IMG/VR virus record: IMGVR_UViG_3300031555_003048
Location: 2,314 to 66,313 of that record
Length of the DNA stretch: 64,000 bases
Source of the DNA: a virus
Taxonomy: Duplodnaviria > Caudoviricetes
Reading direction: 5' to 3' (one strand)
Part shown: piece by piece, positions 13,295-62,540 of the stretch
Numbering within the stretch: position 1 is the first letter of the stretch
Layout: each line of letters begins with the position of its first letter
The notes under the pieces: model-generated
What the model was told of the DNA's origin: nothing
What the model saw: the letters and a program-made list of their open reading frames with translations, nothing else
The model's database searches: none
Program-made: the position numbers and the translations under genes

Positions 13295-13347
13295 TTTACA
13301 CATTTTGTTATATTTACAAAATTATATATTGAAGGAGTTGATTTAAT

Positions 13348-13704: not shown

Positions 13705-13706
13705 TT

Positions 13707-14393: not shown

Positions 14394-14398
14394 GATTA

Positions 14399-15510: not shown

Positions 15511-15537
15511 ATTTTAGAATTTTGGAGGTATTTAAAA

Positions 15538-16626: not shown

Positions 16627-16643
16627 TTATTGGAGAATACTTT

Positions 16644-24893: not shown

Positions 24894-24924
24894 ATTTTTA
24901 ATATTAGTTTAACTATAATTAAAG

Positions 24925-24955
24925 GATATGTTTTTATATCATATAAAAACATATC
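24925..24955. terminator. 15-bp perfect inverted repeat (terminator or operator)
   Basis: gatatgtttttatat-c-atataaaaacatatc, followed by tttt. Confidence 0.55.
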
Positions 24956-25022
24956 TTTTACTTTACAAAAATTTTAATTTTTACAATATAATTATATATT
25001 GTAGGATCGGAGTATAAAATTT

Positions 25023-25382
25023 ATGTTAAATTCAAATAAAAAACCAACTCGTTATTATAGCAAAAAACAAGAAAATAGAACAGCTAAGATATTAGGCGGT
25101 GATACTGTTCCAAATAGTGGGGCAGCAAATTTTTGTGGTGGTGATGTTAAACTCGATAATTTTTTAATTGAATGTAAAACATTAACTACCGAAAAGCAAA
25201 GTATGTCTATTAAGAAAGATTGGTTAGAAAAAACAAAGCAGGAAGCTATATCACAGAGAAAAAGGTTTTATGCTTTAGCTTTTGATTTTGGTAGTAATGA
25301 TAATTATTATGTAATAGATGAAAAGACATTTAAATATTTTTTAGATATTTTAAATAAACTGGAGGAAAATGAAGATGAGTAA
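25023..25382 (+). CDS. Hjc-type resolvase / PD-(D/E)XK endonuclease
   Basis: KQENRTAKILGG...PNSGA...GDV...FLIECKT. Confidence 0.7.
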   Translation: MLNSNKKPTRYYSKKQENRTAKILGGDTVPNSGAANFCGGDVKLDNFLIECKTLTTEKQSMSIKKDWLEKTKQEAISQRKRFYALAFDFGSNDNYYVIDEKTFKYFLDILNKLEENEDE

Positions 25383-36616: not shown

Positions 36617-37117
36617 GTGTGTAGAATGAATTTTAATATAGATACAAATGTTATAATTGCTATAGCAGGAGGTATCTGTAGTATATCTGCTGCCTATGTG
36701 GTAGTTAAAAAATCTATAAAGGGTGTGACTGATAAAGTAAGAGAAAGTATAAAGAAAGAACTTAAAGATGATATTAAAAGAGATGTAGTTGATCCTATGT
36801 ATAAACAGGCATTGGAACAGTATAAAGAAGATTTTAAACTTATCACGAACCATTTAGATTCTTTAACAGAAAAATTAGAAGAACAATTGGATGAACAGAA
36901 AGAACTCAATGATGTCGCCCATGAATTTAGAATTTCTACTCTTAAAGGTCTTATAGTTCAATCACATAGTACATTCACACAATTAGGTAAAATTGAACCT
37001 ATGGTGTTAGCTACTCTTGAAGATATTTATAAAACATATAAGGATATTGGAGGAAATCATTTCATTGATGATTTAATGGAGGAAATTCGTGATTTATCTA
37101 AAGAATCTAAAGATTAA
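36617..37117 (+). CDS. Membrane-anchored coiled-coil protein (holin-like?)
   Basis: N-terminal TM helix; C-terminal YKDIGGNHFIDDLMEEIRDL resembles a family common near Bacillota phage lysis genes. Confidence 0.45.
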   Translation: MCRMNFNIDTNVIIAIAGGICSISAAYVVVKKSIKGVTDKVRESIKKELKDDIKRDVVDPMYKQALEQYKEDFKLITNHLDSLTEKLEEQLDEQKELNDVAHEFRISTLKGLIVQSHSTFTQLGKIEPMVLATLEDIYKTYKDIGGNHFIDDLMEEIRDLSKESKD

Positions 37118-37145
37118 CATTTGCAATAGGATAATATAAAATGGA

Positions 37146-38042
37146 GTGGTTTTGATGGGTGAATTAATTACTACTGATGCTAATACTACGGTTAATAGTA
37201 ATATAGATTATGATTTTTTAGGTACAGAATACTATTATGCTAATTATAATCCTTCTGGTGGTTATAAAGCCTGTAAAACTGTTGTGTATCATTTGTTTTT
37301 AAATACGGATAGATATCATCAAAGTTTAACACCAGATATACCTCAAGTGGATATAAATGAACAATTGTTATTTATACATCTGTATAACGGGGATGAACAA
37401 TTTAACATTGTAAATGCTGATAGTATTAAAATTACTTTTGAATGTAATGGTAAAACAGTTGAGGGAGATCCAGAACGATTAGATTTATATAATCCATATA
37501 GAGGAACATTTACTTATATAATGAATAAAAATGAAACTCAATATGTTGGATTAAACACCATGACTATTACAGTAACTATAGGTTCTGAAACAGCTAATTT
37601 TGTTACTTGTTATAATGTGGTAGCTAATGTTACTATTGGTAATATAGATGGTACTACATATGAAGGAATGACATTACAAGATTTAATAGATTTAATAAAA
37701 AATCATATTGAAGATAAAACAATTCATTGTGATGATTATAAAAACTTAAACATATATAATGCGTTTATAACTGTTAATACATATGAAGATTTAAACACAA
37801 TAGATAAATCTTTGTTAATAGATGGAAAAATGTTTAGAGTTAATAATCCTACTGTTACTTACTATTATTATGATACACAATCTAACACGTTTAAACCTTT
37901 ATTGTTTGATAATGTTGTTTTTGATGATACATCTTTATTATCAAATTATTTAGCACAAACTAAATATTATTATGAACAAGCCCAAGATATCTTATCACAA
38001 GTACAACAGATTAAACAAGAAATGGAAGAGCTTAGAGGTTAG
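37146..38042 (+). CDS. Hypothetical protein, possible BppU/baseplate-like N-terminal domain
   Basis: Beta-rich N-terminal half (LFIHLYNG...ITFE...GTFTY...TITVTIG). Confidence 0.35.
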   Translation: MVLMGELITTDANTTVNSNIDYDFLGTEYYYANYNPSGGYKACKTVVYHLFLNTDRYHQSLTPDIPQVDINEQLLFIHLYNGDEQFNIVNADSIKITFECNGKTVEGDPERLDLYNPYRGTFTYIMNKNETQYVGLNTMTITVTIGSETANFVTCYNVVANVTIGNIDGTTYEGMTLQDLIDLIKNHIEDKTIHCDDYKNLNIYNAFITVNTYEDLNTIDKSLLIDGKMFRVNNPTVTYYYYDTQSNTFKPLLFDNVVFDDTSLLSNYLAQTKYYYEQAQDILSQVQQIKQEMEELRG

Positions 38043-38082
38043 TTATTTATTTTTATATGATATCATTTTGGAGGTAATTTTT

Positions 38083-38445
38083 ATGAAAGCTATTATAAGA
38101 GAACATCCTTTAAACTATTCAGATGAAGATATGTATGATATTGTAGAAGAAACTATGGAAGCTGCTTCCATCATGACTTCTTTATATGAAAAATGCTTTT
38201 ACTGTTATGCTTTAAAAAATGAATTTGGTTTCACTAATGAACAACTTCAACATTTAGAAGATGTTATGCAGAAATATTTAGTTGAAAATGTTGTTGATAA
38301 TATTTTGGATAATTATCCTATGGAAGATGCCAAAAAATATAAAGATGATATTTACTATAAGACATATAATTATTTAACAAATGAATATAACTTAAATTTA
38401 ACATCAATTTATGATGACGAGAATGAAGAAGAGAAAGAAGAATAA
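38083..38445 (+). CDS. Hypothetical acidic protein (N-terminus MKAIIRE)
   Basis: ATG 38083 after GGAGG. Confidence 0.6.
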   Translation: MKAIIREHPLNYSDEDMYDIVEETMEAASIMTSLYEKCFYCYALKNEFGFTNEQLQHLEDVMQKYLVENVVDNILDNYPMEDAKKYKDDIYYKTYNYLTNEYNLNLTSIYDDENEEEKEE

Positions 38446-38770: not shown

Positions 38771-39298
38771 ATGATATTGAAGGAAGTGATTATTATAAAA
38801 CTTCAAATAAATGAAAATGAATATCTTTTTGAAATGGCTAATATTCGTGGTAAATCTGTTAAAGTTCCACATAAACTTCCATTTTCATTTTATTTTTCTT
38901 CAAAAGATTGCGTAGAAGGTAAATCATTGTTTCACGGAATTAGAGTTAAACCTGTTTTAAATCCTGAAAAGATGTCTATATCTATGGCAGGTACTTTAAA
39001 ACTTTGTGATGATTGGGAATTTATACCACCAGAAGGAGAAAAGGTAGATTCTAAACTTAAAAAGCAGATAATTGAATTTTTTAGAACATATAAAACATTA
39101 TTTGCTGCTGTTTGGGAAAAGGTTTTATCTCCTGATGCCCTGTATGATTATTTTAGAGGAACAATTGACTTTCGTGAATTAAAGGAAGAATTTGATTTTT
39201 ATGATATGTTTAGTAAAGAATTAGATAATATTTATGATTTAGACAGTTTAACTGATTTTATAAGAACAAATAATTTATTCAATTTATGGGAATCTTAA
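38771..39298 (+). CDS. Hypothetical protein with KLQINE near its N-terminus
   Basis: 175-aa ORF after promoter; shares the motif with the 53-62 kb array. Confidence 0.65.
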   Translation: MILKEVIIIKLQINENEYLFEMANIRGKSVKVPHKLPFSFYFSSKDCVEGKSLFHGIRVKPVLNPEKMSISMAGTLKLCDDWEFIPPEGEKVDSKLKKQIIEFFRTYKTLFAAVWEKVLSPDALYDYFRGTIDFRELKEEFDFYDMFSKELDNIYDLDSLTDFIRTNNLFNLWES

Positions 39299-48660: not shown

Positions 48661-49215
48661 ATGTATGCGTTAATGATGAATAAATCTTTTATATGTGTAT
48701 CTTCTGGATTTGAATTACAACCAGTTAATCAAATCAGTTCTGCTACATTATTTGATAGTTTTTCTAATGCTAATAATTTTGTGAATACACATATTCAAAA
48801 GAAAATTAGATATAAATATAAAATTGTCAATTGTGATGATTTAATGCTGTCCGATGAATCTTTATCTAAATTAGTTTTAGATACAGTTACAGATAAAACA
48901 ACTAAATTAATAGATGAACAGATACAAATGTTAAACAATGCTTTATCTTTAATGGACAGAAAACAGCAAGATATATTACATTATATTGAAGCTAATGAAA
49001 AGTTCAATTTGTACCAATCTTGGAAGATAGTTCACAAGCTACAAAAGATAAGAGCTAAACGCCGGAAGATAAAGAAATGCTTGGTAACTTTATTTTCTTT
49101 TAAACAATCTATAAGTTTAGAACAGCTTTATCTAAATCAATGTGAAAGTAATTCCTATAACAATCGTGTAATTGAAGATATGGAAAGTTACATAATGAAT
49201 GATGACACGGAGTAA
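48661..49215 (+). CDS. Hypothetical coiled-coil protein
   Basis: ATG 48661 after GAAGGTG; QQDILHYIE...KLQKIRAKRRKIK. Confidence 0.6.
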   Translation: MYALMMNKSFICVSSGFELQPVNQISSATLFDSFSNANNFVNTHIQKKIRYKYKIVNCDDLMLSDESLSKLVLDTVTDKTTKLIDEQIQMLNNALSLMDRKQQDILHYIEANEKFNLYQSWKIVHKLQKIRAKRRKIKKCLVTLFSFKQSISLEQLYLNQCESNSYNNRVIEDMESYIMNDDTE

Positions 49216-49265
49216 TATTTAATTATTTGTTTACATTTATATAAAACTATTGTAATAACTATAGT

Positions 49266-49287
49266 TTATAATATAATTACAGTAAAG
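49266..49287 (+). promoter_or_regulatory. Phage promoter motif, copy 3
   Basis: ttataatataattacagtaaag, identical to 38747. Confidence 0.65.
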
Positions 49288-49322
49288 GAAACAGTAATAA
49301 GGGTTTTAATTATTGGAGGATT

Positions 49323-49586
49323 TTGAATATGAAATATCTTGTTAAAATATGGTGGGAAAATGAAAAGACAGCAGATATAAAGATAATGTCGGAAAGAGAG
49401 CTGGTTAAGTGGTTTGATATGTCAGACTGCTACCCTTCATTTGATTACGAAATCTATGCAGTGGATACTCACGCTAAGAAAGCACCTTTTAAGATTACTT
49501 ATGTAGGTTGGCAGCCTAACTGTTTTATAGAGTTTGTAGATGAGTATGGAGATGTTGCAGCAGCTGGCTATGGTACAGATCATTAA
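49323..49586 (+). CDS. Hypothetical protein
   Basis: GGAGG RBS, 87 aa. Confidence 0.6.
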   Translation: MNMKYLVKIWWENEKTADIKIMSERELVKWFDMSDCYPSFDYEIYAVDTHAKKAPFKITYVGWQPNCFIEFVDEYGDVAAAGYGTDH

Positions 49587-49605
49587 ATAAGAAAGGAAAG
49601 ATAAT

Positions 49606-50142
49606 ATGAAAGTTCTTATAGTTATAGATATGCAGAATGATTTTATAGACGGAGTGCTTGGTACGAGGGAAGCTCAAGCAATCGTGCCTCTTGCCTGTGA
49701 GAAGATAAAGAACTTTAAGGGAGCAATACTCTTAACCGCTGATACTCACAATGAGAACTATCTTAATACACAGGAAGGAAAATTTCTTCCTGTTCCTCAT
49801 TGTATAAGAGATACAATTGGTTATGATATTAACGATGATATATATGCGGCTATATGCAAAAAGCCTCATTTAAAAATACATAAAAATACTTTTGGAACCT
49901 TCACTCTGCCAAAATGGATAAAAGAAATAGCTCATGATTCTGGAGAAGAGATTGAAGCTATTGAGCTTATTGGAGTTTGCACGGATATATGTGTAATCAA
50001 TAATGCTCTTATCCTTAAAGCGGCGTTTCCCGAAGTACCAATTATGGTTGATGCGACTTGCTGTGCTGGCGTAACACCCGATCTGCATGAGGCTGCTCTT
50101 AAAGTAATGAAGAGCTGTCAGATAATTGTGAAGGAGGGCTAA
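49606..50142 (+). CDS. pncA: Isochorismatase-family cysteine hydrolase (nicotinamidase-like)
   Basis: LIVIDMQNDF, TADTH, PHC, KNTFG, GVCTDICV. Confidence 0.85.
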   Translation: MKVLIVIDMQNDFIDGVLGTREAQAIVPLACEKIKNFKGAILLTADTHNENYLNTQEGKFLPVPHCIRDTIGYDINDDIYAAICKKPHLKIHKNTFGTFTLPKWIKEIAHDSGEEIEAIELIGVCTDICVINNALILKAAFPEVPIMVDATCCAGVTPDLHEAALKVMKSCQIIVKEG

Positions 50143-50144
50143 CT

Positions 50145-50345
50145 ATGAAGCTCACATCTGAAATAATTTATCAGATCAATAAAGATATGAGTGAACTTCA
50201 GATGCAAGAATATGAAAGGGATATACGGGAGTTTGAATGTGTTGAGAAAGGAGAGCTTCAATACTTCCTCGCTTATCTTTGGAAAAGGTATGAGAGACTT
50301 GAAAAGTGCTGGGAAAATGTCTGTGATGAATTAGAAAGATCTTGA
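50145..50345 (+). CDS. Hypothetical protein
   Basis: GGAGG RBS, 66 aa. Confidence 0.55.
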   Translation: MKLTSEIIYQINKDMSELQMQEYERDIREFECVEKGELQYFLAYLWKRYERLEKCWENVCDELERS

Positions 50346-50364
50346 TAATAAAGGAGGGCTGATT

Positions 50365-50658
50365 ATGGCTCTGAATATATGGCTTGATGATATAAGACCT
50401 GCTCCTTCTGGATATATATGGGTTAAGTCAGTCAACCAAGCTCAAAAAGTTATTTTAGGAGCCGAGAATCTTGGGGAAGATATACTTGAGCTTAATCTTG
50501 ATCATGATCTTGGTGATTATGCTAAGGACGGTGGCGATGGTATTAAGTTAATACTGTGGCTTGCAGAAACTGAGAGACATTATCCGATTGAACTCCATAC
50601 TCTTAACCCGGTTGGGCGTGAAAATATGCAAGCAATTATAGATCGGTATTGGCCGTAA
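50365..50658 (+). CDS. Cyclic-phosphate-processing receiver-domain-like protein
   Basis: IWLDDIRPAP, LDHDLG, G..LILWL, LHTLNPVGRENM. Confidence 0.75.
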   Translation: MALNIWLDDIRPAPSGYIWVKSVNQAQKVILGAENLGEDILELNLDHDLGDYAKDGGDGIKLILWLAETERHYPIELHTLNPVGRENMQAIIDRYWP

Positions 50659-50669
50659 GTAAAAAAGGA

Positions 50670-50915
50670 ATGATAATTATGCCGAACGTTACTCCACTTC
50701 CAACTTCAATACACATAGAGTTTCCTTATGATGTGACTATCACAACAAAGGAAGAAGCTGTTGATTATGTTATCAACCAGTGTAAGAACTGTCCTCGTTA
50801 CATAGCTAACTGGGATTGTTCTGGTAAAACTTTATACAAATGCATAACTGTGACGCATGATCTCGTAAATAATGTAAGAGAGCAGTTTCATCTTTTTACG
50901 AATGAAAGATTATGA
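50670..50915 (+). CDS. Hypothetical protein flanked by 14-bp direct repeats
   Basis: CKNC...WDC..C motif; flanks read gatcggtattggcc. Confidence 0.5.
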   Translation: MIIMPNVTPLPTSIHIEFPYDVTITTKEEAVDYVINQCKNCPRYIANWDCSGKTLYKCITVTHDLVNNVREQFHLFTNERL

Positions 50916-50962: not shown

Positions 50963-50990
50963 TTGACTTTTCTAAAATTTTTGATATAAT
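50963..50990 (+). promoter_or_regulatory. Consensus SigA promoter (TTGACT-N16-TATAAT)
   Basis: ttgact tttctaaaatttttga tataat upstream of the pentapeptide gene. Confidence 0.7.
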
Positions 50991-51057: not shown

Positions 51058-51963
51058 ATGGACATTACTCTGTTAAATATAATAATTGAAAAACATAGAA
51101 AATGGATAGGGCATCAGGAAGGTGGGGAAAGAGCTAACCTTTGCGGGACTGACCTTCGCGGGGCCAACCTTAGTGGAGCTGACCTTCGCGGGGCTAACCT
51201 GCACGAAACTAACCTTAGTGGAGCTAATCTTTGCCGAACTAATTTTAATAGGGCTGACCTTTGTGGGGCTAATCTTTACAGGGCTAATCTTAGTGGAGCT
51301 GACCTTTGTGAGGCTAACCTTAGTGGAGCTGACCTTTGCCATGCTAACCTTTATGAGGCTAACTTTAGTAGGGCTAATCTTTATGCAACTGACCTTTGTG
51401 AAGCTGACCTTAGTAGGGCTAACCTTTATGGAGCTAACCTTCGTGGAACTAATCTTAGTAGGGCTGACCTTAGAGGAGCTAACATTCGTGAGGCTAATTT
51501 TATTAGGGCTAACATTCGTGAGGCTAATCTTAGTGGAGCTAACCTTAGTGGGGCTAATCTTAGTGGAGCTAACATTCGTGAAGCTAATCTTAGTGGAGCT
51601 AACCTTAGTGGGGCTAATAATATACCATATATACCTATGGCTTGTCCTGACAATGGAAGTTTTATTGCGTGGAAGAAAGCCGGAAAATATATTATAAAAT
51701 TGCTTATACCTGATGATGCTATGCGTTCATCAGCAACCGGTAGAAAATGTCGAGCAAATAAAGCCAAGGTTTTGGAAATTCAAAATGTAGACGGAGAAAA
51801 GGCTGATATTAATTCAGTGGCAAGTGATTATGATAGTAGTTTCATATATGTAGTAGGACAAGAAATAACGGTTCCTAATTTTGAAGAAAACAGATTTATG
51901 GAGTGTGCCCCAGGAATACATTTCGTTATCAATCGGCAAGAAGCAGTTGAGTATGCAAGATAA
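51058..51963 (+). CDS. Pentapeptide repeat protein with DUF5758-like C-terminal domain
   Basis: Roughly 30 A(N/D)Lxx repeats; C-terminal SFIAWKK..IIKLLIP..A.RSSAT.RKCRA..AKV...ECAPGIHF. Confidence 0.92.
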   Translation: MDITLLNIIIEKHRKWIGHQEGGERANLCGTDLRGANLSGADLRGANLHETNLSGANLCRTNFNRADLCGANLYRANLSGADLCEANLSGADLCHANLYEANFSRANLYATDLCEADLSRANLYGANLRGTNLSRADLRGANIREANFIRANIREANLSGANLSGANLSGANIREANLSGANLSGANNIPYIPMACPDNGSFIAWKKAGKYIIKLLIPDDAMRSSATGRKCRANKAKVLEIQNVDGEKADINSVASDYDSSFIYVVGQEITVPNFEENRFMECAPGIHFVINRQEAVEYAR

Positions 51964-52827: not shown

Positions 52828-52946
52828 TAAAAAAGAATAAAACAACATATTATAATAATAAACTACTAATAGTATAATAATAGGTGTTTAGTAATGAACA
52901 CCCTTGTTCTACTATTAGTATTTTTTATATAAAGGAGTTTATAAAT

Positions 52947-53429
52947 ATGATTATTAGAGAATATAGAAATAAATTTCGACCTAAATATGAATATTTTGCC
53001 AGATATAGAATTACTTTCAATGATTATGATGAGGAAATTGCAAATAATTTAATAGGTCTTATTAATTCTTATTTTATTGTTTATGACAATGTTAAAGATT
53101 TAGGACCCCGTGGAATTGAATTTATGATACATAATGATAATATTAGCTATATTAATAAATTATTTATAGAAGATTTTTTAAATGAATATGATTATGGTTA
53201 TATTGCTAATGTGGAAGATATTGGTTGTCCTAATGTATATAAAGATGATAAATGGTATTGGATTGATTCACAAGAATTAGCAGATATAGATGAATTAGAA
53301 GAAATTTGGCATAATAGTTTTGTTGGCTATGGTGATTATGATGATAATTATCCTACTACCTTTAATGCATTTGTTCGTCAATGTGTAGATGGTAATGAAT
53401 TAAAATTAGTGGAATGGATAACTAATTAA
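52947..53429 (+). CDS. IxE-leader array protein (MIIRE)
   Basis: ATG after AAGGAG; acidic. Confidence 0.7.
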   Translation: MIIREYRNKFRPKYEYFARYRITFNDYDEEIANNLIGLINSYFIVYDNVKDLGPRGIEFMIHNDNISYINKLFIEDFLNEYDYGYIANVEDIGCPNVYKDDKWYWIDSQELADIDELEEIWHNSFVGYGDYDDNYPTTFNAFVRQCVDGNELKLVEWITN

Positions 53430-53445
53430 AGTTAGGAGTTTACCT

Positions 53446-54195
53446 ATGAAATTAAGAATATTAGAAACATATAATGCTAAAAATAATTTTGTATCTATTA
53501 ATAACCCAGATAATATAGCTGCAAATTGGTTTGGTAATAAAAAAGTAGGTAATGTTACTCTCAATGATTATATGCGTTATGAAAAAGGTCAAGATGCTAT
53601 AATTGAATATATGTCACCTAATGAATATTTAGATAGGTGTATTAATGACATATTTAATTCTACATATGAAAAAGTTGTGGGTGTTGTTAAACAACATAAT
53701 GCTAATATTATATCTAAATATGCTAATGATATGTTAAATGGGGATAAATTTCCTTTACCTTATTTAGATTATGTTCATAAACAACAAGAAGGTAGACATA
53801 GAGCTTTAGCAGTTATTGAAGCCTTTGGTGAAGACAGCATAATGCCTGTTATAGTTATAAGACCGACTGACCCAACAGAAGAAGAACTTAAACAATATGC
53901 TAAACAGCGCTGGCCCAATGATCCTGCATGGGGATTAGAATATGTAAAAAGTAAGTATGATAAATTTAATATTGACAACACTATTGAGGATGAAACTGAT
54001 GGTTTAGATAATATTGAAACCAAATATAATGATACTGATTTTGATTTAGATAGTGAATTAGATTCTTTATATGATGATATAGATGAAGAAGATTTCCTTA
54101 ATTTTGTAAATAATAGATACCATACCAATTATAATTCAGTCACAGATATAGATGCTATAACATTTACACAGGCACTTGATAAATATTTCTCGTAG
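53446..54195 (+). CDS. IxE-leader array protein (MKLRILE) with ParB/Srx-like domain
   Basis: KYANDM..GDKFPLPYL...QEGRHRALA...PVIVI. Confidence 0.7.
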   Translation: MKLRILETYNAKNNFVSINNPDNIAANWFGNKKVGNVTLNDYMRYEKGQDAIIEYMSPNEYLDRCINDIFNSTYEKVVGVVKQHNANIISKYANDMLNGDKFPLPYLDYVHKQQEGRHRALAVIEAFGEDSIMPVIVIRPTDPTEEELKQYAKQRWPNDPAWGLEYVKSKYDKFNIDNTIEDETDGLDNIETKYNDTDFDLDSELDSLYDDIDEEDFLNFVNNRYHTNYNSVTDIDAITFTQALDKYFS

Positions 54196-54311
54196 TATTA
54201 CATTTGTTTTATAAATAAATTTAATTATTTATTTACATTCTATAATAATATTAGTAATAATTATATAGTATAATAGTATAGTAGGAAAACCATATTTGGA
54301 GGTATTATACT

Positions 54312-54728
54312 ATGAATTATACTGTTAATGAAAAACTTAAAAATGAATTATTTGCCGATATTTATATGGATTTTGTTAAATGTAGTAGCAATCAATGTTG
54401 GGATATTCCTAATTTTTATACTATAATTCTTTATGATTGGATAGATAATCAAAAGAAAGTTTTTCATATTGAAAGTGAAGAAGAATTATATTTCTTTGTA
54501 AAGAACTTTGCATATAGAGATATTATTTATATTATGAAATGCCCTTGGCGAAATGGCAATGATTTGAATAGTAGATTCAATGTAGATTGTATTAATGGAG
54601 TAATATATAATGAATATTTAGAAGAATTTGATAATAATGAATTTAAGTATTTTAATTCAATTTGTAATCAGTTTGGAGTTGAAAATTATGGTGAAGATAA
54701 TAACCCCTGGACGTCCAGAGTTTATTAA
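54312..54728 (+). CDS. Hypothetical protein (MNYTVNE)
   Basis: GGAGG RBS. Confidence 0.6.
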   Translation: MNYTVNEKLKNELFADIYMDFVKCSSNQCWDIPNFYTIILYDWIDNQKKVFHIESEEELYFFVKNFAYRDIIYIMKCPWRNGNDLNSRFNVDCINGVIYNEYLEEFDNNEFKYFNSICNQFGVENYGEDNNPWTSRVY

Positions 54729-55176
54729 GGTTAATATTAATCAGTTTGTAGAATGTGTTGTAAAAACATTTAAGTTATCTTTAAATGAAGAACATATTAC
54801 TTCAAAGGATAAGTTAAAACAATACAGAGATTATATTGACGGAGCAGAAGTTAAAAAAGAATTGGGTAATTTACTTAATGATTTTGTTAATAAATATAAA
54901 CGAAATGACTATATAAGAAAAGTAGATTTCTATGTTAGCAAAAAAGAAGGACTCTCTAATTACATTGAAATTACTTTTAATGCTCCTTTTGGTGTTAAAG
55001 AATGGCTAAAACATATGAAAATAAGAATTTCTGACCATCCTAAACACAATGATAGAAAGATAGATGAATATATAAAATTAGAAGGTAAATCAGTAGAAGA
55101 TATAGAAAATGAATTAGATATAATAATTAATAGACGGATTAGAAGATTACAAAGAGAAGAACAAGGAGTAAGTTAA
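54688..55176 (+). CDS. Hypothetical protein (internal KLSLNEE; IRISDH motif)
   Basis: ATG 54688 after GGAG. Confidence 0.6.
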   Translation: MVKIITPGRPEFIKVNINQFVECVVKTFKLSLNEEHITSKDKLKQYRDYIDGAEVKKELGNLLNDFVNKYKRNDYIRKVDFYVSKKEGLSNYIEITFNAPFGVKEWLKHMKIRISDHPKHNDRKIDEYIKLEGKSVEDIENELDIIINRRIRRLQREEQGVS

Positions 55177-55178
55177 TT

Positions 55179-55313
55179 ATGAAACTTAAAATTAATGAAA
55201 GTGGTTATAGCCATAAAAAGTATAATTTGATTTCTGAAGATGAATATAATTGATAGTCAACTTACTCATAATAATATAGAAGATTTTATAGCTGATATGA
55301 ATGATAGACTTGA
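55179..55313 (+). pseudogene. Frameshifted IxE-leader remnant (MKLKINESGY..., stop at 55253)
   Basis: AAGGAG RBS; 24 codons then TGA; another frame continues IIDSQLTHNNIEDFIADMNDRLDNFV. Confidence 0.55.
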
Positions 55314-55365
55314 TAATTTTGTTTAATTAGAATAAAAGTAGCTAATTAGAAAGGATTTAGTTAAT

Positions 55366-55866
55366 GTGATTAAACTTACTATACCAGAAAGCAATGATTG
55401 GAATACCAATACGCCTAATATTAAAATTAATTTTATGCGTCAAATAATGAAAGAAAATAATAATTATGTTGGAGAACCTTGTGTAGGTATATTTTGGTAT
55501 GACACTAATGAAAATGAATTATTTGGTGTTCGTTCTAATTTAGCAGAAGATACTAAATATTATTATTCAGATATGTTAAATCAATATGTAAGAACAACTA
55601 AATTTTTACATTATGCCATTTGGCAAAAAGAATCTAATAGAGGTAAAGACGAACGATTCCAAACTTTAGATTATACTAAATATCCAAGGGGTAGGATATT
55701 TGAAGTTAAAGATAAAGGTTTTGAAGTATATGTTGGTAATTGGATAAAAGATTATCCACAATGTAAACAATTAATTATAGATGAATTTGATTTACCTCAA
55801 AATACTGAATTTATAATTGATGCACATTGGGATTTAGGTCACGGTTGGTCAGACAAAGAATTTTAA
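55366..55866 (+). CDS. IxE-leader array protein (MIKLTIPE)
   Basis: VGIFWYD...YPRGRIF...DAHW. Confidence 0.7.
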   Translation: MIKLTIPESNDWNTNTPNIKINFMRQIMKENNNYVGEPCVGIFWYDTNENELFGVRSNLAEDTKYYYSDMLNQYVRTTKFLHYAIWQKESNRGKDERFQTLDYTKYPRGRIFEVKDKGFEVYVGNWIKDYPQCKQLIIDEFDLPQNTEFIIDAHWDLGHGWSDKEF

Positions 55867-55904
55867 AACAAATATCAAAAATGAATTATAGAGGTGAAAC
55901 TACA

Positions 55905-56429
55905 TTGAAATTAAGAATTAATGAATCAAAATATAATTTAGATTGGAAAGAAATAGGAACAGAAACTATTTATATAGGTGATGAAAGATATAGACTTCCT
56001 ATATATGAAAAACGTTTATATCCTACTATTGTAATTCAAGTTGTACCAGAAGAAAATGATAATAAGGAAGAAATTGTTTGGACAGTTTATTATACACCTG
56101 AATTTGGTAGAGCCGGTTTTAAATTTGTTGAAACAGGTTTCTTTGATAGCGTAGAAGCTATGGATTATGTAGATAATGAACTTATAGGTAAGTTTGATAT
56201 ATTTGACATTATTAATAATGCCATAAACGAAGATGTAGATACCAATTCGAAAGATTTGGCTGAACAAGTATTAGAAACATTTAAGTCTGATGTAGATAGA
56301 TTAAAAAGTATATACGCTTCCTATATGAAACTATATAAGGAAAATAAAGATAACTCAGATAAGTTATTAGATATAGCTGATAAAATAGCTTCTATTACAA
56401 TTAATATACCTGATGTATTTAATAAATAA
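55905..56429 (+). CDS. IxE-leader array protein (MKLRINE, TTG start)
   Basis: GAGGTG RBS then ttgaaattaagaattaatgaa. Confidence 0.72.
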   Translation: MKLRINESKYNLDWKEIGTETIYIGDERYRLPIYEKRLYPTIVIQVVPEENDNKEEIVWTVYYTPEFGRAGFKFVETGFFDSVEAMDYVDNELIGKFDIFDIINNAINEDVDTNSKDLAEQVLETFKSDVDRLKSIYASYMKLYKENKDNSDKLLDIADKIASITINIPDVFNK

Positions 56430-56455
56430 TATTTGTAGAAAGGAATTGATTATAT

Positions 56456-56830
56456 ATGTTTATAAGAGAAGATATGATGGCACAAGTTAATAAAATGGAG
56501 GATAGAATAATAGACTATCTTGGTTGGGAAGAAGCTTTTAAGGCTATTTCTAAGGCATTAGATGTAGATACTAAGAATAGTATTTACGAATATATAATTA
56601 GAAATTATGAGATACCCTTATATGAATTTGGGGGCTATAAATTTGACCCAAATGGAGATTGGACTGATATTTGGTATTCTGTAATAGAGCCTATTATAGA
56701 CGAGCATTTCGGTTCCGAAACATTTGAAGATGACGTGGATGCCATAATTAATATGTTTATGGATGAATTTGGTGAATTTGATTCTGTAAGAATTGCCTGT
56801 GAAAAGTTCTTTGATGAAAATTATATTTAA
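56456..56830 (+). CDS. IxE-leader array protein (MFIRE)
   Basis: RBS gaaaggaattgattatatatg. Confidence 0.72.
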   Translation: MFIREDMMAQVNKMEDRIIDYLGWEEAFKAISKALDVDTKNSIYEYIIRNYEIPLYEFGGYKFDPNGDWTDIWYSVIEPIIDEHFGSETFEDDVDAIINMFMDEFGEFDSVRIACEKFFDENYI

Positions 56831-56855
56831 TTTAAAAGAAAGGATTTGATTATAT

Positions 56856-57254
56856 ATGAAATTAAGAATTAATGAATCTACTAAACGTAATATAATGGAA
56901 TTACCTACATCAGAAAGACTTGATATATTAACTAAACTGTTTGATAAGTACCCTTTTGGTGTAAGTACAGAGCAAGCTATGGCATGGTTTGAGCTAAATG
57001 GATTTGACACTTCTAACTATACTAATGAACAATTTAATAGCGATTGGGATGATTGGCTTTCCTTTTATGATTATGATGACGAAGATAATGTAGTTGATAC
57101 TTATAATGAAATTGAAACCAAAGAAGATGCTTATAATTGGTTACAAAATAAGTTAAGCGAATATGGAAATACATATCATTTTAATAATGAAGATAGGTAT
57201 AAGTTAGATAGACTTATAGATAGATTTGGTAATACTTATTTTTGGAATAGATAA
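56856..57254 (+). CDS. IxE-leader array protein (MKLRINE)
   Basis: RBS gaaaggatttgattatatatg. Confidence 0.75.
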   Translation: MKLRINESTKRNIMELPTSERLDILTKLFDKYPFGVSTEQAMAWFELNGFDTSNYTNEQFNSDWDDWLSFYDYDDEDNVVDTYNEIETKEDAYNWLQNKLSEYGNTYHFNNEDRYKLDRLIDRFGNTYFWNR

Positions 57255-57274
57255 TAGTAAAGGAAGAATTTATT

Positions 57275-57514
57275 ATGAAAATTAAAATTAAGGAATCCGA
57301 ATATGGTTTAGGTGGTAGAAACTATTCTAACTTGAACCCAGTTTTACAGGAGTATATAGATTTTCTTCAAGAAGATGGTATTGAGGTTTTAAATGTTGCC
57401 TATAAACTTAAAACAATAACTGTTAAACGGAAGGCTTCATTTTACTTACAGGATAGAGATTATTTTGGAAAAGATTTATATAAAGACGGTTGGTCAGTAA
57501 TAGCACAACTTTAA
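57275..57514 (+). CDS. IxE-leader array protein (MKIKIKE)
   Basis: AAGGAAG RBS. Confidence 0.7.
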   Translation: MKIKIKESEYGLGGRNYSNLNPVLQEYIDFLQEDGIEVLNVAYKLKTITVKRKASFYLQDRDYFGKDLYKDGWSVIAQL

Positions 57515-57550
57515 CTTTTTTAGTTTATATATAAGAAAGGATAGTTTATT

Positions 57551-57832
57551 ATGAAATTAAGAATTAATGAAGATACAAGAACTAATGGTTATTATATAGT
57601 ATATTACGGCGGTAATTGGAATCACGGTTCCTATAAGTGTAACACACAAATGGAATTGCGTGAGTTTTTATCTTCAAATATATTTGATAGTATTACTAAG
57701 ATAGAATATGTTGTTGATGAAACAGATAAGTGGAAAGAATTTGCTAATGTATTATATCAAAATGTAGATAGAAATTCTATAAGTGATGAACAGTATCGTA
57801 AATTGTTTGATAGAGGTATTACTGCTAAATAA
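57551..57832 (+). CDS. IxE-leader array protein (MKLRINE)
   Basis: GAAAGG RBS. Confidence 0.72.
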   Translation: MKLRINEDTRTNGYYIVYYGGNWNHGSYKCNTQMELREFLSSNIFDSITKIEYVVDETDKWKEFANVLYQNVDRNSISDEQYRKLFDRGITAK

Positions 57833-57890
57833 ATAGATCTGGCAATACTTATTTTTAGCTGTTCAGAAAATAGGAAAGGAAGTTATAATT

Positions 57891-58169
57891 ATGAAACTTA
57901 AAATTAATGAAGATGAATGGAGAAAATCTTGGCAAGATTATTTACCTACTGACGTAAGAAGTAGATTAGAAAGATGTAAAAATATAAAAGATGATATTTC
58001 TATTCTCACTAATTGCTATTATAATCATAAACTTAAAGGCAAAGGTAATTTTGTAGTAGAGGACGCTTTAGTTCATATACTTGAACTTCTTGATAGTAAT
58101 AGTCAGTATTTTGATTTAACTAAAGATGAATATGATGATATTTTATATTTGGCTATGAAACCCTATTAA
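57891..58169 (+). CDS. IxE-leader array protein (MKLKINE)
   Basis: GGAAAGGAAG RBS. Confidence 0.72.
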   Translation: MKLKINEDEWRKSWQDYLPTDVRSRLERCKNIKDDISILTNCYYNHKLKGKGNFVVEDALVHILELLDSNSQYFDLTKDEYDDILYLAMKPY

Positions 58170-58182
58170 AAGGAGAATAATT

Positions 58183-58977
58183 ATGAAATTAAGAATTAAT
58201 GAAAAAGACACATCAATGAAGTATAAAACTTATAGCAATATTGAAAAGTGCTTTAATATTTTGGTCAATGAGAAAGGTTATTCTAAAGAAGAAGCACAGA
58301 ATATTATTGACAATATATTAACTGACTATAAATATAATCCAAATTCAAATGATTCCCTTTTAAGGCGAATAAATTTAGTATTGCCGAAAGACGAATATGA
58401 AAAAGAATACAGAATTGCTGAAAGATTTACAAGACTGAAAGAGAAAGAAACACCTAATATAGAAGTAAAACATGAAGGTATATTAGAAGTTCCAAAAGGT
58501 AAAAATGTAGATGATTTACCATTAAGTCATTTTGTAAATTTAGCTAATAAGAAAGGTTTATCTAAAATTACTAAAGCTCTTAATAATCTTCAAGTTTGGA
58601 ATAAAAATGATGACCCTAAACTTTCCAAATGGGCTGGAGACATGATTGATAAACTTAATAAGAAGTTAAAGAAAGATGAAAGTTTAAATAAGAGTTTAGT
58701 TAAAGAAAGTTCTAAAGAATCTTATTGGAAATATTATCTAAATGATAAAGCTATTGAACGTATGGAAAATTCGGACCGTTATTTTGATGAACGTAGCATA
58801 AAACAGGTTAAACTTTATCCTTGTGAAACTGAAGATGAATGTTATGAAGGTGATTTTTGGTCAGTAAGAAAATCTGATTATCCATACACAGCTATATTTG
58901 GTACTAAAGATGAAGCCTACAGAGAACTTATGTATAGTCTGAATAATAGTATGTACGAAAGAGAAAACGATTTATAA
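58183..58977 (+). CDS. IxE-leader array protein (MKLRINE), multi-module
   Basis: AAGGAG RBS; internal KKDES and LVKESSKES junctions. Confidence 0.75.
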   Translation: MKLRINEKDTSMKYKTYSNIEKCFNILVNEKGYSKEEAQNIIDNILTDYKYNPNSNDSLLRRINLVLPKDEYEKEYRIAERFTRLKEKETPNIEVKHEGILEVPKGKNVDDLPLSHFVNLANKKGLSKITKALNNLQVWNKNDDPKLSKWAGDMIDKLNKKLKKDESLNKSLVKESSKESYWKYYLNDKAIERMENSDRYFDERSIKQVKLYPCETEDECYEGDFWSVRKSDYPYTAIFGTKDEAYRELMYSLNNSMYERENDL

Positions 58978-58992
58978 TGAAGTTGTTTTATT

Positions 58993-59148
58993 ATGATAAT
59001 TAAAGAAACTAATAATGATACTGTTAAAGTGGAAGAAGAAATTACAGAAGAAAATGGTTCTAATACTTATTCTGCTATTCATAGTTATGGTATAAATTTT
59101 GATTATTTATGGATGAATAAAAAACAAGGTGATAATTATGATAATTAA
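58993..59148 (+). CDS. IxE-leader mini-ORF (MIIKE, 51 aa)
   Basis: Not in the ORF track; its start matches that of ORF 60001. Confidence 0.5.
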   Translation: MIIKETNNDTVKVEEEITEENGSNTYSAIHSYGINFDYLWMNKKQGDNYDN

Positions 59149-59902
59149 AGAACGTTTAGAACAAACCAAATATGGTTTTGTAACTAATTATGCTGGTGAT
59201 ATTGTAAATTTTATGGTTAATAAACCTAAAATATATAGAATAACCTATTACCCTGGTTTAGATATTTATGCTATATGTGACGGTTACGAAAATATTCACC
59301 TATCAAATGACCGTTCTTTAGAAGAATTAGGATATGTTGATGAAGTTTTACACGATGAAGATTTCATTAATTTCCTATTTATCCCCACTGAATTTATAGA
59401 TGATAAGGAAAAGTGGGAAGTATATGGAGTTGGTGAAAATGAAAGAGCCTATTTAACCCCTATAACAACAGGTTATATTATTACTTATGATGGAGAAACT
59501 TTAACTCAGGATATATCAGAGTTATACGAAATTCTAAAAAGAAGACATTTACTTGTTGATCTAAAACCTAAAAACGATATTTTATTTCCTGAACTTAATC
59601 TAGATAATTGGGATGCCTATAATTATCTAGCTATGAATGTTTCCGCCTATCTTAAAAGTAATTCTGGTAGATTAATAATGGGTACTCCAGAAAAACAAAT
59701 GAAAGCCTTAAGACAACTTAAACAATATATAACAACTCACGAACGTCCTAAAAATTCTAGGTTTAAATATTGGGGATATTGGTTTGGCTACGATGATGAA
59801 GAACTGGATGAAATAGAACAAAAATTAAACAAACATTATGATGAATTACACGAATCTATTTTAAAATTAAAAATCAGAGAGATAAATACAATGTTAAAGT
59901 AG
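59138..59902 (+). CDS. IxE-leader array protein (MIIKE)
   Basis: AAGGTG RBS; ends LHESILKLKIREINTMLK. Confidence 0.72.
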   Translation: MIIKERLEQTKYGFVTNYAGDIVNFMVNKPKIYRITYYPGLDIYAICDGYENIHLSNDRSLEELGYVDEVLHDEDFINFLFIPTEFIDDKEKWEVYGVGENERAYLTPITTGYIITYDGETLTQDISELYEILKRRHLLVDLKPKNDILFPELNLDNWDAYNYLAMNVSAYLKSNSGRLIMGTPEKQMKALRQLKQYITTHERPKNSRFKYWGYWFGYDDEELDEIEQKLNKHYDELHESILKLKIREINTMLK

Positions 59903-60000
59903 ATTCTGGTACTAAGGACGAAGCTTATGTACAATTTATGATTGATTGGAATAATAGTGAACATGAAAATATAATTTATAAAATAAGGAGTTGTTAGGAC

Positions 60001-61251
60001 ATGATAATTAAAGAAAATAATAATTTAAGGGATGAAATATTTGCATTTTTAGATGAGACTGGTGGTTATACAGATTATAATCAAAAAATAGAAGATGTTT
60101 CAGAAGAATTTGGACTTTCCGAGGATGAAGCTGAGAATTTTGTTTGGAGTTGGGCTTCCAATTCTGATTTGGACTTGGAAGAATCTTATGATAGTGATTA
60201 TACTGTACATTATGGGGATAGAATAACTGCTAAAAATTTTCGAGAACTTATAGATAAACTTGAAGCACACGGTTATTCTTGTGAACACTATTATGATATA
60301 GATTATCCTGATAGTAATTGGCTTTATATCATTAAAGATGGAGATTCTTACGAAGCTGAGTTTTATAAATATCGTGATGGTGAGTACGAATTATATTTAC
60401 ATAATATTCGCCCTACAAAAGAAAAATCTTATAATGAATCTTATGATAGTGATTATACTTATGAAGATAAATATGAATACATAAAAAGTAAAACTGTTTT
60501 GGATAGCGATGGATTTACCACAGATTACACTATGTATTATGATAATGAAGATGATAAATATATATTCATTTATGGTGATGCTGATATTTATGATCCTTAT
60601 AATTCTGACCCTGATTGGGAGTGTGAAACTGAAAGAGAAGCTAATGAGTGGTTTAATAGTTATAATGAATATGATGATAGTTACCAGTTTGATGACTACA
60701 GATATTATGATGGATTAGATGAAAAATTATCCATTAGAGAAGCAGAACAGAAATATAATAGTGCCATAACTTCTATTAATTCAGGTAAATTACCTGCTGT
60801 ATTTTCTAAAGTAAGATTTGAACCTAATACTATAAATCTTGACTATGGTGGAGGTAAATTTGATAATGTTGCTGAATATCTGAAAGATAAATACAATGTT
60901 ACTAATTTAGTTTATGATAAATATAATAGAAGTTCTGGACATAATTCGGACGTGCTAAAACAAGTAAAAGAAAATGGAGGTGCCGATACAGTTACTTGTT
61001 CTAATGTTCTTAATGTAATTGCTGAACCCGAAATAAGACAAGAAGTTTTGAGAGATTGTAAAAAATATCTTAAACCCAACGGTACTTGTTATATCACGGT
61101 TTATGAAGGTAATGGTTCCGGTGAAGGTAAAGCCAACGATAAAAGACAGTCTTATCAAACTAATATGAAATTAGATGATTATATTGATGAAGTATCTAAA
61201 GTATTTTCTAATGTAAAGAAAAATAAAGGTATGCTTGTTTGTACTAAATAA
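60001..61251 (+). CDS. IxE-leader multi-module protein with C-terminal SAM-dependent methyltransferase
   Basis: MIIKE start; LEESYDSDY, YNESYDSDY and LSIREAE junctions; NLDYGGGKFD, YDKYNR, CSNVLNVI. Confidence 0.78.
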   Translation: MIIKENNNLRDEIFAFLDETGGYTDYNQKIEDVSEEFGLSEDEAENFVWSWASNSDLDLEESYDSDYTVHYGDRITAKNFRELIDKLEAHGYSCEHYYDIDYPDSNWLYIIKDGDSYEAEFYKYRDGEYELYLHNIRPTKEKSYNESYDSDYTYEDKYEYIKSKTVLDSDGFTTDYTMYYDNEDDKYIFIYGDADIYDPYNSDPDWECETEREANEWFNSYNEYDDSYQFDDYRYYDGLDEKLSIREAEQKYNSAITSINSGKLPAVFSKVRFEPNTINLDYGGGKFDNVAEYLKDKYNVTNLVYDKYNRSSGHNSDVLKQVKENGGADTVTCSNVLNVIAEPEIRQEVLRDCKKYLKPNGTCYITVYEGNGSGEGKANDKRQSYQTNMKLDDYIDEVSKVFSNVKKNKGMLVCTK

Positions 61252-61259
61252 CATTTTTT

Positions 61260-61627
61260 TGTCATACTTTGCCGGGTTGTTATAATCACGGTACTGAATT
61301 TCATAAAAAGCTAAACTGATTTATAATTTAATGGGATATAAAATAGATACTAAAGCCAACCAAGATACCTCTAAACATTTTAATAATAATATTATTATTA
61401 TGGATGAACCCCCTTATAAAGTGGTTTGTGATAATTGTGGTGCAGAACAAAAATTTGTCCGGCTAACGCAACAATTAAAAAATGCAAGCTACTATAAATG
61501 TTTTCAGTGCAATAAATCCTACTTAGTTACATATAAATTAGATAAAAGAACTGGTCAATATAAAGAGTTAATACCGAGGAAAACTATTGACGCTATAAGA
61601 GAATTACATCATATACTGGCAATTTAA
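61260..61627 (+). pseudogene. Truncated, frameshifted SprT-like metalloprotease remnant with Zn ribbon
   Basis: CHTLPGCYNHGTEFHKK (61260-61310), shift in an A5 run into AKLIYNLMGYKI...CDNCG...YKCFQC; N-terminal HExxH portion missing. Confidence 0.6.
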
Positions 61628-61668
61628 TAAGCATAATTTTTATACTTAAAGAAAGGAATTGATAGGAA

Positions 61669-62475
61669 ATGAAGATTAATGAAGCTAATAGTTATGGTTG
61701 GGAAGTGCCTGAAAATATGGCTCGGGAAGCATATGAATTTGCTTGTGATAGAATGGGTAAAGAATTTGTAGACGACCAAATAGTTGACGGTCTAAGTATG
61801 TATGAACTTGCTTCTTCTTTAGCATATCTTTTTAGAATATGGAATTTTGAAGAGTGGGATGAATATTTAGAAAATGAAGATGATGAATATATAGATGAAT
61901 CATTGATTAGAGAAGCTATGAATAAACTTCTTTATGCAAGTGACCTTGACATTGAAGACAAATTAGTAATCCCTAATGATAAATATTCTTTTGTTATTAC
62001 AGATAATGGTTGTTATGACCTTACGAAGAAGGGTATTTACCCTGTTTATACCTGGGTAGGTAAACAACATAGCAGTTCCAGAAGTTTAACTCCTAAGCAG
62101 TTAGATAAATTGGAATCTTTTGTATATAATATAGTTGTTCCTGCTATGGCAAAATATTGTAATGTGGATGAAAAAGATGTAAAAGTAAATGATTTTACAA
62201 ACTCCACAGATATGTATAGGGTTTGGGTAGACATTACAGATAAGAAAGAAAACGAATCTTGTAAGAAGAAATCTAAAAAGAAATCTATGAAAGAGTATAT
62301 AGATGAAGCACACGGCGTAATTAAGTGTGTAGAAACTGGTGAAGAATATGGATATAGTAGCTTAGTTGATAGAGAGTGGATTATAGCTGATTTAGTAGAT
62401 AAGGGATATACTTATAAAGATAGACCTGTTAGAATAGAAACTGGTTACAGAGAATACGATAATTATCTTGATTAA
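61669..62475 (+). CDS. IxE-leader multi-module protein (MKINE)
   Basis: GAAAGG RBS; internal LIREAMN and SMKEYIDEA. Confidence 0.72.
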   Translation: MKINEANSYGWEVPENMAREAYEFACDRMGKEFVDDQIVDGLSMYELASSLAYLFRIWNFEEWDEYLENEDDEYIDESLIREAMNKLLYASDLDIEDKLVIPNDKYSFVITDNGCYDLTKKGIYPVYTWVGKQHSSSRSLTPKQLDKLESFVYNIVVPAMAKYCNVDEKDVKVNDFTNSTDMYRVWVDITDKKENESCKKKSKKKSMKEYIDEAHGVIKCVETGEEYGYSSLVDREWIIADLVDKGYTYKDRPVRIETGYREYDNYLD

Positions 62476-62500: not shown

Positions 62501-62540
62501 ATAAGGGTTATTTTATATAGATAACCCTTATTTTGTTTCT
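62501..62540 (+). terminator. Intrinsic terminator closing the IxE array
   Basis: ataagggttat-N9-ataacccttat followed by tttgtttc. Confidence 0.75.

Follow-up and report, generated by a model that had tools for sequence, protein, structure and literature searches.

The window analysed here, a stretch of 64,000 nucleotides, corresponds to bases 2314-66313 of the IMG/VR record IMGVR_UViG_3300031555_003048 (66 kb; G000 in what follows) and belongs to a lineage of uncultured gut/rumen T4-like giant phages whose head module, as seen in relatives, is SP-15-like. Between 52.9 and 62.5 kb it carries an array of genes with dissimilar bodies that share a short N-terminal leader, M-K-L-x-I-(N/K/R)-E or short forms such as MIIKE and MKINE. 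We consider it reasonably probable that this leader is a head-loading tag clipped by a protease, comparable to the capsid-targeting sequence (CTS) of the internal proteins of phage T4. The leader would be an N-terminal propeptide recognised by a prohead protease of the gp21 type; the tagged protein would enter the core of the assembling prohead, the protease would clip the tag after the Glu residue, and the mature protein would be kept together with the DNA inside the head, perhaps to enter the next host cell alongside it. Proteins made of several modules may be cut into separate pieces. The array would then represent a fast-evolving set of cargo genes, which in relatives adjoins the terminase, portal, protease and capsid genes. 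The sequences show the motif, selection on its peptide, the unrelated bodies, the protease family in relatives and the joint variation of leader and protease substrate sites; cleavage, packaging, injection and cargo function are inferred.

A shared leader at the start of unrelated genes

The leader takes the forms MKLRINE, MKLKINE, MKIKIKE, MKLRILE, MIKLTIPE, MIIKE, MIIRE, MFIRE and MKINE (5-7 residues), behind all of which lies the common motif [L/M](-5)-x-I(-3)-x-E(-1), with N, S, D or T as the usual next residue. The DNA pattern encoding MKL(R/K)INE matched seven times in the window, where 0.08 matches were expected. For protein-level counts, genes were taken from a simple gene caller, the first 12 residues were considered N-terminal, and the expectation was set by the rate of the motif inside proteins. 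On this basis, [LM]xIxE was N-terminal in 17 of the 107 genes of G000 (0.44 expected), 13-15 of these 17 falling within the array. The strict form [KR]LxIxE gave seven N-terminal matches in the window, all of them in the array, and three internal ones in 17,299 positions. An earlier note, made from the letters of the window, had described a run of about 15 such genes. All the starts it listed are present, including two outliers at 38083 (MKAIIRE) and 38771 (KLQINE at residues 10-15), and the run stands as far as the motif is concerned, with the reservation that the genes at 54312, 54688 and 61331 are devoid of a canonical leader and the open reading frame (ORF) at 55179 has only 24 codons, because of which it is probably the remnant of a leader gene. 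The bodies behind the leader are indeed unrelated, since BLAST found no similarity among them, and they are acidic (median isoelectric point, pI, 4.6 vs 5.7) and rich in aromatic residues (p = 0.002), as had also been noticed.

Relatives of the window phage were located through a scan with the leader pattern and a search with its RecA-like protein, which is around 70% identical between this phage and the relatives used below for protease inference. The same N-terminal enrichment of [LM]xIxE was found in three of them: G001, a 104-kb record that is likewise a fragment and carries a homologous array (16 vs 0.63 expected), and the near-complete G002 (272 kb, 96% complete; 19 vs 1.35) and G007 (202 kb; 13 vs 1.5). 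It was absent in the more distant relatives G003-G006.

The 42 leaders of G000, G001 and G002 were used to analyse residue and codon choice. Ile at position -3 and Glu at position -1 were present in 42/42, while position -4 was occupied by 11 different residues; position -2 was mostly N, K or R, and position +1 mostly N, S, D or T. Leu was encoded by TTA in 18 cases, CTT in 10, CTA in three and TTG in two (48, 28, 9 and 10% genome-wide), and the codons for Ile (ATT 29, ATA 13) and Glu (GAA 38, GAG 4) also matched genome-wide proportions. The distance between start codon and motif varies, as illustrated by MVRKLRINE, MIKLTIPE and MIIKE. Because synonymous codons vary in the proportions of the whole genome, the codon data argue that selection is on the peptide and not on a DNA or RNA element.

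Head proteins of relatives and a second leader class

All genes of G000 lie on the same strand and fall under replication, deazaguanine, tRNA and accessory functions; neither head nor tail genes nor a match to Peptidase S77/U9 were found in this 66-kb record, which we regard as a fragment because it is devoid of structural genes. Its CheckV completeness estimate of 91% is at odds with the zero structural genes and with relatives of 200-270 kb. A prohead protease was found in relatives, G002 and G007 having a Peptidase_S77 (T4 gp21) domain in the N-terminal part of an ORF of 570-620 residues, the remainder of which is scaffold-like (E values 7.6e-11 and 1.5e-14, respectively, both above the Pfam cut-off). 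Both phages also encode a gp23-type capsid protein and a gp20-type portal. The nearest cultured proteases are those of Streptococcus phage GXN1, Listeria phage LIS04 and Bacillus phages SP-15 and HSE3, followed by those of classical T4-like phages, and the head, neck and tail genes of these four cultured relatives are annotated as T4-like.

In T4, gp21 cleaves the sequence I/L-x-E behind its Glu residue (PMC12991175). The scaffold parts of the relatives are rich in this motif: [LI]xE was found 17 times in G002 (5.5 expected) and 16 times in G007 (4.6 expected), an approximately threefold enrichment comparable to that of T4 gp22, itself a known substrate of gp21 (16 vs 5.75 in shuffles), while T4 gp20 and gp18 showed no excess. 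SP-15, LIS04, HSE3, GXN1 and G004 have the excess as well. The control patterns E.[LI], [LI]E, [LI]..E and [LI].K/D/Q were not enriched in the scaffolds, and the extended form [LI]xES was found seven times against 0.74 expected. The proteases themselves have N-termini with similar sites, LRLVE↓S in G002 and LKLNE↓S in G007 (the arrow marks the known or putative cut). When the N-termini of the capsid proteins were aligned, the position equivalent to the T4 gp23 cut (LTE65↓A66 in NC_000866) lay around 21 residues ahead of a conserved PNLIA motif and had the sequence LLE↓A (G002), LAE↓A (G007) or, for six further relatives, (L/M)xE↓(S/T); the capsid protein of G007 begins MASMINE↓A and also has RNIRIAE↓S. 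Sites of the (L/I)-x-E type, for which the earlier note proposed to check scaffold and capsid precursors, are thus found in both, and the last three residues of the leader match the cleavage motif predicted for the gp21-family protease of these relatives.

Leader genes are also found near the head module. In G002, the genes for terminase, portal, protease and capsid are immediately preceded by a stand-alone methyltransferase homologue and two other leader genes. Five array genes have homologues at one end of the G007 contig, the other end being occupied by further leader-like genes and the head module. Leader genes of G009, one of the sister phages described below, lie a few kb downstream of its capsid gene. 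The presence of the protease alone is no predictor of the leader, as G003, G004 and the cultured relatives have it without large leader arrays. As a side observation, the major capsid gene is interrupted in several of these phages: in G002 (L053, 14479-16324) it is in two pieces with a 571-bp gap, in G007 (12873-17083) in three pieces with inserted ORFs, and that of SP-15 is annotated as split by an endonuclease ORF.

Three sister phages of 160-175 kb from IMG/VR (G008, G009 and G010; loci L116-L141) have a different leader, MK(R/K/V/I)YI(K/R)(S/A)(S/A), which we call class B as opposed to the class A of the window. It is present in 20-25 genes in each phage, arranged in arrays and including homologues of window genes, so that one family can carry either class or none. 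N-terminal I.[AS][AST] was found 21-24 times vs around 5.5 expected, an excess confined to these three genomes, and N-terminal [LI]xE was not enriched in them. The predicted substrates of the protease differ in the same direction. The capsid site of G009 and G010 reads VTA↓A and ITA↓A, respectively, in an otherwise conserved ATN..NI context, and the capsid propeptide contains three (G009) and five (G010) copies of [IV]xA[SAG] (0.5-0.6 expected) and no [LIM]xE, whereas those of G002 and G007 contain four and five copies of [LIM]xE and none of [IV]xA[SAG]. The scaffolds of G009 and G010 show no excess of [LI]xE (4 vs 3.7 and 3 vs 3.1), and their protease has no L-x-E at the N-terminus. Within the protease, with catalytic residues taken from PMC12991175, an Arg located 3-4 residues after the catalytic His (H85 in T4) is invariant in nine Glu-type enzymes, that of T4 included, and is replaced by Pro in G009 and G010. 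A third, longer leader, MK(R/K)(T/Q)FT..., is present in four or five G009 genes, at least three of which have (I/V)xAS as the leader end (NIEAS, YVKAS, VIAAS).

Given that leader, capsid site, scaffold and protease residue shift together, the end of the leader tracks the predicted specificity of the protease. Such co-variation between leader and substrates is expected of a cleavable propeptide, and is not predicted if the leader were a DNA-level element or the vestige of a paralogous family. The capsid-targeting function put forward in the earlier note finds strong, if indirect, support in the match between leader end and cleavage motif and in their joint shift in the sister clade; on the other side, the window is without head genes. 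These data also lead us to a broader and more tentative proposal, namely that the leader may be a programmable address of which the last residues co-evolve with the head protease, the P1 residue having changed from Glu to Ala/Ser in class B, with cargo modules swapping leaders as they pass between phages, polyproteins being cut in the head and a large, swappable payload of 15-25 different proteins delivered with the DNA by giant phages common in gut and rumen. In this proposal, the change from Arg to Pro by the catalytic His appears to accompany the P1 switch, the capsid propeptide and around 20 cargo leaders having switched too.

Other explanations and known systems

Several observations weigh against a head-loading tag. 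The protease had to be inferred from relatives because the contig of the window has no head genes. The leader, with its 5-7 residues, is shorter than the CTS of T4 internal proteins (10-19), its length being equal to that of the gp67 and gp68 propeptides. The array is set among replication, tRNA and early-type genes and has a sigma-70 promoter within, and no clear late-promoter signal was found, nor a motif shared by the regions upstream of the G002 head genes; TATAAATA, considered as a late promoter, is too frequent in these A+T-rich genomes and was uninformative in G008-G010. Most array bodies are acidic, unlike the basic IPII and IPIII of T4. Some homologues of the 166-residue protein encoded at 55366 have D or N in the position of the leader Glu, and the homologues of the array methyltransferase in G007 and G010 have no N-terminal leader. 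With respect to the co-variation, class A versus class B is essentially a single phylogenetic contrast, and the class-B scaffold motif I.[AST][AST] was significantly enriched in G009 (7 vs 2) and not in G010 (3 vs 1.8). As this motif was picked after inspecting the data and was not replicated in G010, we relied on the capsid propeptide instead.

The leader could instead be a protease-recognised or other peptide-level tag with a purpose other than head loading, either clipped late in the cytoplasm by the prohead protease or another factor, as a timer turning early proteins on or off, or used for docking to another phage or host machine. We regard this as unlikely. The location of the array amid early-type genes, its strong sigma-70 promoter and the acidic bodies, a property of many early host-takeover proteins, would fit such a role; in addition, T4 gp21 produced on its own, in free form, shows activity in the cytoplasm (PMC12991175), and in an AlphaFold2 (AF2) model of the 166-residue protein the leader residues are coil yet fairly confident (mean predicted local distance difference test, pLDDT, of 81 for residues 1-10), so that they may pack on the body. 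However, T4 is the only studied system of this protease family and all known N-terminal substrates there are prohead components, and the head module of G002, G007, G009 and GXN1 has leader genes on its flanks. Ahead of the minimal cleavage triplet, K-L is conserved in class A and K-x-Y in class B, which suggests that these residues have a second role, in binding. An altogether different possibility is that the conserved feature lies in the nucleic acid, as a translation-initiation or mRNA operator element or a recombination linker between gene cassettes, comparable to the PeSL elements in hyperplastic regions of T4-type phages, the peptide being a by-product. Four starts are identical in DNA (ATGAAATTAAGAATTAATGAA), some of the upstream ribosome-binding-site regions are alike, the Lys2 codon is AAA in 30/30 leaders vs 71% genome-wide, and genes have clearly exchanged modules, the junctions of which carry leader-like sites. 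We nevertheless find this very improbable, given the genome-like variation in Leu, Ile and Glu codons, the freedom of position -4 while L, I and E are invariant and the variable distance from the start codon; such an element cannot explain that the leader end co-varies with motifs in the capsid and scaffold proteins.

We give similarly little credence to the array being a single, very divergent paralogous family of which only the N-terminus is still recognisable. A few pairs are true paralogues or share modules, namely the G002 genes at 24646 and 25572 (BspA-type leucine-rich repeat, LRR) and the window gene at 56856 and the G001 gene at 51668, but most bodies are dissimilar and differ in length and domains (methyltransferase, LRR, DUF5662, VGIFWYD family), members of one family can have a leader of class A or of class B or lack it, and even a common origin would still call for a functional constraint on the N-terminus. 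Least credible of all is a recognition tag for a modifying enzyme such as a radical-SAM (S-adenosylmethionine) maturase. A 63-residue MKLRINE ORF in G007 is located directly upstream of a 235-residue radical-SAM ORF (185391-186053, L114); the two could form a peptide-maturase pair, and no second pair of this kind was found. No radical-SAM match was obtained in G009, which has 24 leader genes, G002 gave one match, which falls under the family cut-off and looks NrdG-like, the two in G001 are QueE and NrdG-like, and no enzyme gene consistently adjoins the arrays. The maturase tag was rejected on these grounds, the genes found being of QueE/NrdG type except for that one pair.

A head-loading tag has clear precedents. 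The internal proteins of T-even phages are a diverse set sharing only a CTS (PMC3012670), which gp21 removes (PMC3012670, PMC5694885); the CTS of IPI, IPII, IPIII and Alt and the polymorphic T-even loci are treated in Mullaney and Black (1996) and Repoila et al. (1994), as cited in PMC3012670 and PMC5694885. The principle of a diverse cargo with a common, clipped tag is therefore already known from T-even phages. As in T4, the array combines a short N-terminal peptide ending in (I/L)-x-E, otherwise unrelated proteins and a variable locus, in a lineage whose protease belongs to the gp21 family and whose gp22-like scaffold abounds in this motif. The differences are also considerable: there are 15-20 tagged genes per genome vs 3-4 in T4, protease and scaffold form one fused protein, a gut/rumen bacterium of the Bacillota is the probable host, a sister clade has a non-Glu version, and the system described here is known from sequence alone. 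The T4 leaders read from NC_000866 are MKTYQEFIAE for IPII and IPIII, MEGLIE for gp67, MLLIPE for gp68, MLKEQLIAE for gp22, MNEPQLLIE for gp21 and MAKINELLRE for gp24. Similarity to MKTYQEFIAE is limited to I-x-E, which indicates that the leader is an analogue or a very distant derivative of the T4 CTS and not the same peptide. The very short propeptides of gp67, gp68, gp22 and gp24 have the same architecture, MLLIPE of gp68 resembling MIKLTIPE of the window and MAKINE..LRE of gp24 resembling MKINE; those are, however, conserved single-gene structural or core proteins, in contrast to the variable array of the window. The inner-head and ejection proteins of the giant phages phiKZ, 201phi2-1 and SPN3US are a further parallel, since many proteins inside the head are processed there by a protease related to gp21, at a short motif with Glu as its last residue (PMC5694885, PMC10052503). 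These phages share with the window the Glu-ending motif, and their paralogues have identical N-termini, but the motif is (S/A/G)-x-E, the propeptides are mostly longer than 100 residues and the substrates were identified by mass spectrometry.

The exact class-A leader is absent from SP-15, LIS04, HSE3 and GXN1. Streptococcus phage vB_SagM-GXN1 (PQ819873.1, L148) has, however, genes starting with MRLVKLNE↓S, MRLVRLTE↓D, MRLVKLTE↓S and MRLIRLNE↓D, and probably MRLIRLLE↓D. Three of its leader genes are located directly after the capsid gene (record positions 132585-134706), none of them annotated by the depositors in the stretch viewed, and others are at 98803 and 122076. This cultured phage, with an analogous small leader family, makes the idea testable at the bench. 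No paper naming GXN1, and none with the leader strings, was found in the literature library searched. New here are the very short leader, present in 15-20 genes per genome of a gut/rumen lineage with an SP-15-like head module, and the second leader class, co-varying with a predicted non-Glu specificity of the gp21-family protease. If the reading is correct, widespread gut/rumen T4-like giant phages would carry a larger and more variable protein payload than T4, recognisable in sequence by a 7-residue tag, which would allow candidate injected proteins (possible anti-defence or host-takeover factors) to be listed from metagenomes. It would also provide a natural orthogonal pair of tags and proteases (I-x-E and I-x-A/S) of use for protease substrate choice and cargo loading.

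Array proteins and other features of the window

Searches of the array bodies against Pfam and PHROG gave no family except for one SAM-methyltransferase domain in the protein encoded at 60001, and no body matched a known anti-defence protein. The positions of the array genes and associated signals are collected in Table 1; the terminator that the earlier note placed at 62501, at the end of the block, is real.

Table 1. Leader genes, other genes of the array and associated signals in the window; the arrow marks the predicted cut
Feature	Position	Strand	Remarks
Outlying leader-like gene, MKAIIRE↓H	38083..38445	+	good ribosome-binding site
Outlying gene, MILKE at start, KLQINE↓N at residues 10-15	38771..39298	+	
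Hairpin	52883..52902	+	weak terminator-like site, upstream of first leader gene; possible left boundary
Leader gene, MIIRE↓Y	52947..53429	+	160 aa, pI 4.3
Leader gene, MKLRILE↓T	53446..54195	+	249 aa; G002 homologue begins MILILE↓S
138-aa gene, weak leader variant MNYTVNE	54312..54728	+	
Leaderless basic 162-aa gene	54688..55176	+	start codon uncertain; homologues in G001, G002 and G007
ORF, MKLKINE↓S	55179..55253	+	24 codons
Leader gene (GTG start), MIKLTIPE↓S	55366..55866	+	166 aa, VGIFWYD-motif family
Leader gene (TTG start), MKLRINE↓S	55905..56429	+	174 aa
Leader gene, MFIRE↓D	56456..56830	+	124 aa
Leader gene, MKLRINE↓S	56856..57254	+	132 aa; G001 homologue begins MKLRIKE
Leader gene, MKIKIKE↓S	57275..57514	+	79 aa; G001 homologue begins MRLRINE
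Leader gene, MKLRINE↓D	57551..57832	+	93 aa
Leader gene, MKLKINE↓D	57891..58169	+	92 aa, Leu codon CTT
Leader gene, MKLRINE↓K	58183..58977	+	264 aa
Leader gene, MIIKE↓T	58993..59148	+	51 aa
Leader gene, MIIKE↓R	59138..59902	+	254 aa
Leader gene, MIIKE↓N	60001..61251	+	416 aa, several modules
Near-consensus sigma-70-type promoter	61259..61286	+	TTGTCA, 16-nt spacer, TG-TATAAT; inside array
Leaderless basic 98-aa gene	61331..61627	+	
Leader gene, MKINE↓A	61669..62475	+	268 aa
Intrinsic terminator	62501..62531	+	13-bp stem then T run; closes block

Some array proteins are composed of modules that are separate genes in one phage and fused in another. Residues 88-154 of the 58183 protein correspond to a separate, class-B-led gene of 84 residues in G008. 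The 60001 protein has an internal leader-like sequence, KLSIRE↓A, at residues 242-247, directly ahead of the methyltransferase domain (279-372), which in G002 is a stand-alone gene of 192 residues beginning MKLNINE followed by a second KLSINE; the methyltransferase fusion protein of G007 has the internal sequence PMKLRITE↓S at residue 75. High-scoring internal leader-like sites are concentrated in proteins of the array region. The distribution of the modules fits cassette fusion and possibly cleavage into modules, and it is the retention of these internal sites that suggests that multi-module proteins may be cut into pieces.

The families represented in the array differ widely in their distribution. 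Only two homologues of the 93-residue protein (57551) were found among 5.8 billion proteins, in contrast with 173 homologues of the 166-residue protein, whose family is widespread and characterised by the VGIFWYD motif. Its close homologues start with MKLxIPE and many others with MK(R/K)YI(K/R)..., while neither start is seen in the bacterial ones. The AF2 model of the 166-residue protein has a pLDDT of 93, with residues 1-9 as coil, and matched no fold in the PDB (best Foldseek E value 0.04, TM score 0.25). Some homologues of Bacteroidia type (P0106, P0115, P0118 and P0120) are fusions in which a YoeB-family toxin domain (PF06769) precedes the VGIFWYD domain, which hints at a role of this fold in toxin-antitoxin systems or immunity. 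BspA-type LRR proteins carry the leader in both classes and are a recurrent type of cargo in these gut/rumen phages. Their genes are located at 24646-26453 in G002, 36988-38271 in G009, 155903-157333 in G010 and 49072-50784 in G008; they were assigned by the Pfam family LRR_5 in G008-G010, and the G002 pair by BLAST similarity to LRR-like G002 proteins.

A Bacillota host is likely for the window phage, given a G+C content of 27% and the fact that every cultured relative has its host in this phylum. Neither megablast with the array nor tblastn with the 166-residue protein gave matches among cultured phages.

Other features of the window are unconnected with the leader. The DnaX clamp-loader gene (25369-27510) encodes 713 residues vs 343 in G001, the tblastn match being in two pieces; it likely contains an intein, as the additional segment has matches to proteins of the Hint/intein type. 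The family-A DNA polymerase of G001 (L003, 6152-10065) is divided into three ORFs with an intervening ORF of 247 residues, which points to introns and/or the insertion of a homing endonuclease, unlike the copy in the window (8921-11284), which is intact. A near-consensus extended -10 sigma-70 promoter is located at 50963-50990, ahead of a gene of 301 residues (51058-51963) with a local G+C content of 39% vs 27%, where an overlapping alternative frame resembles pentapeptide repeats.

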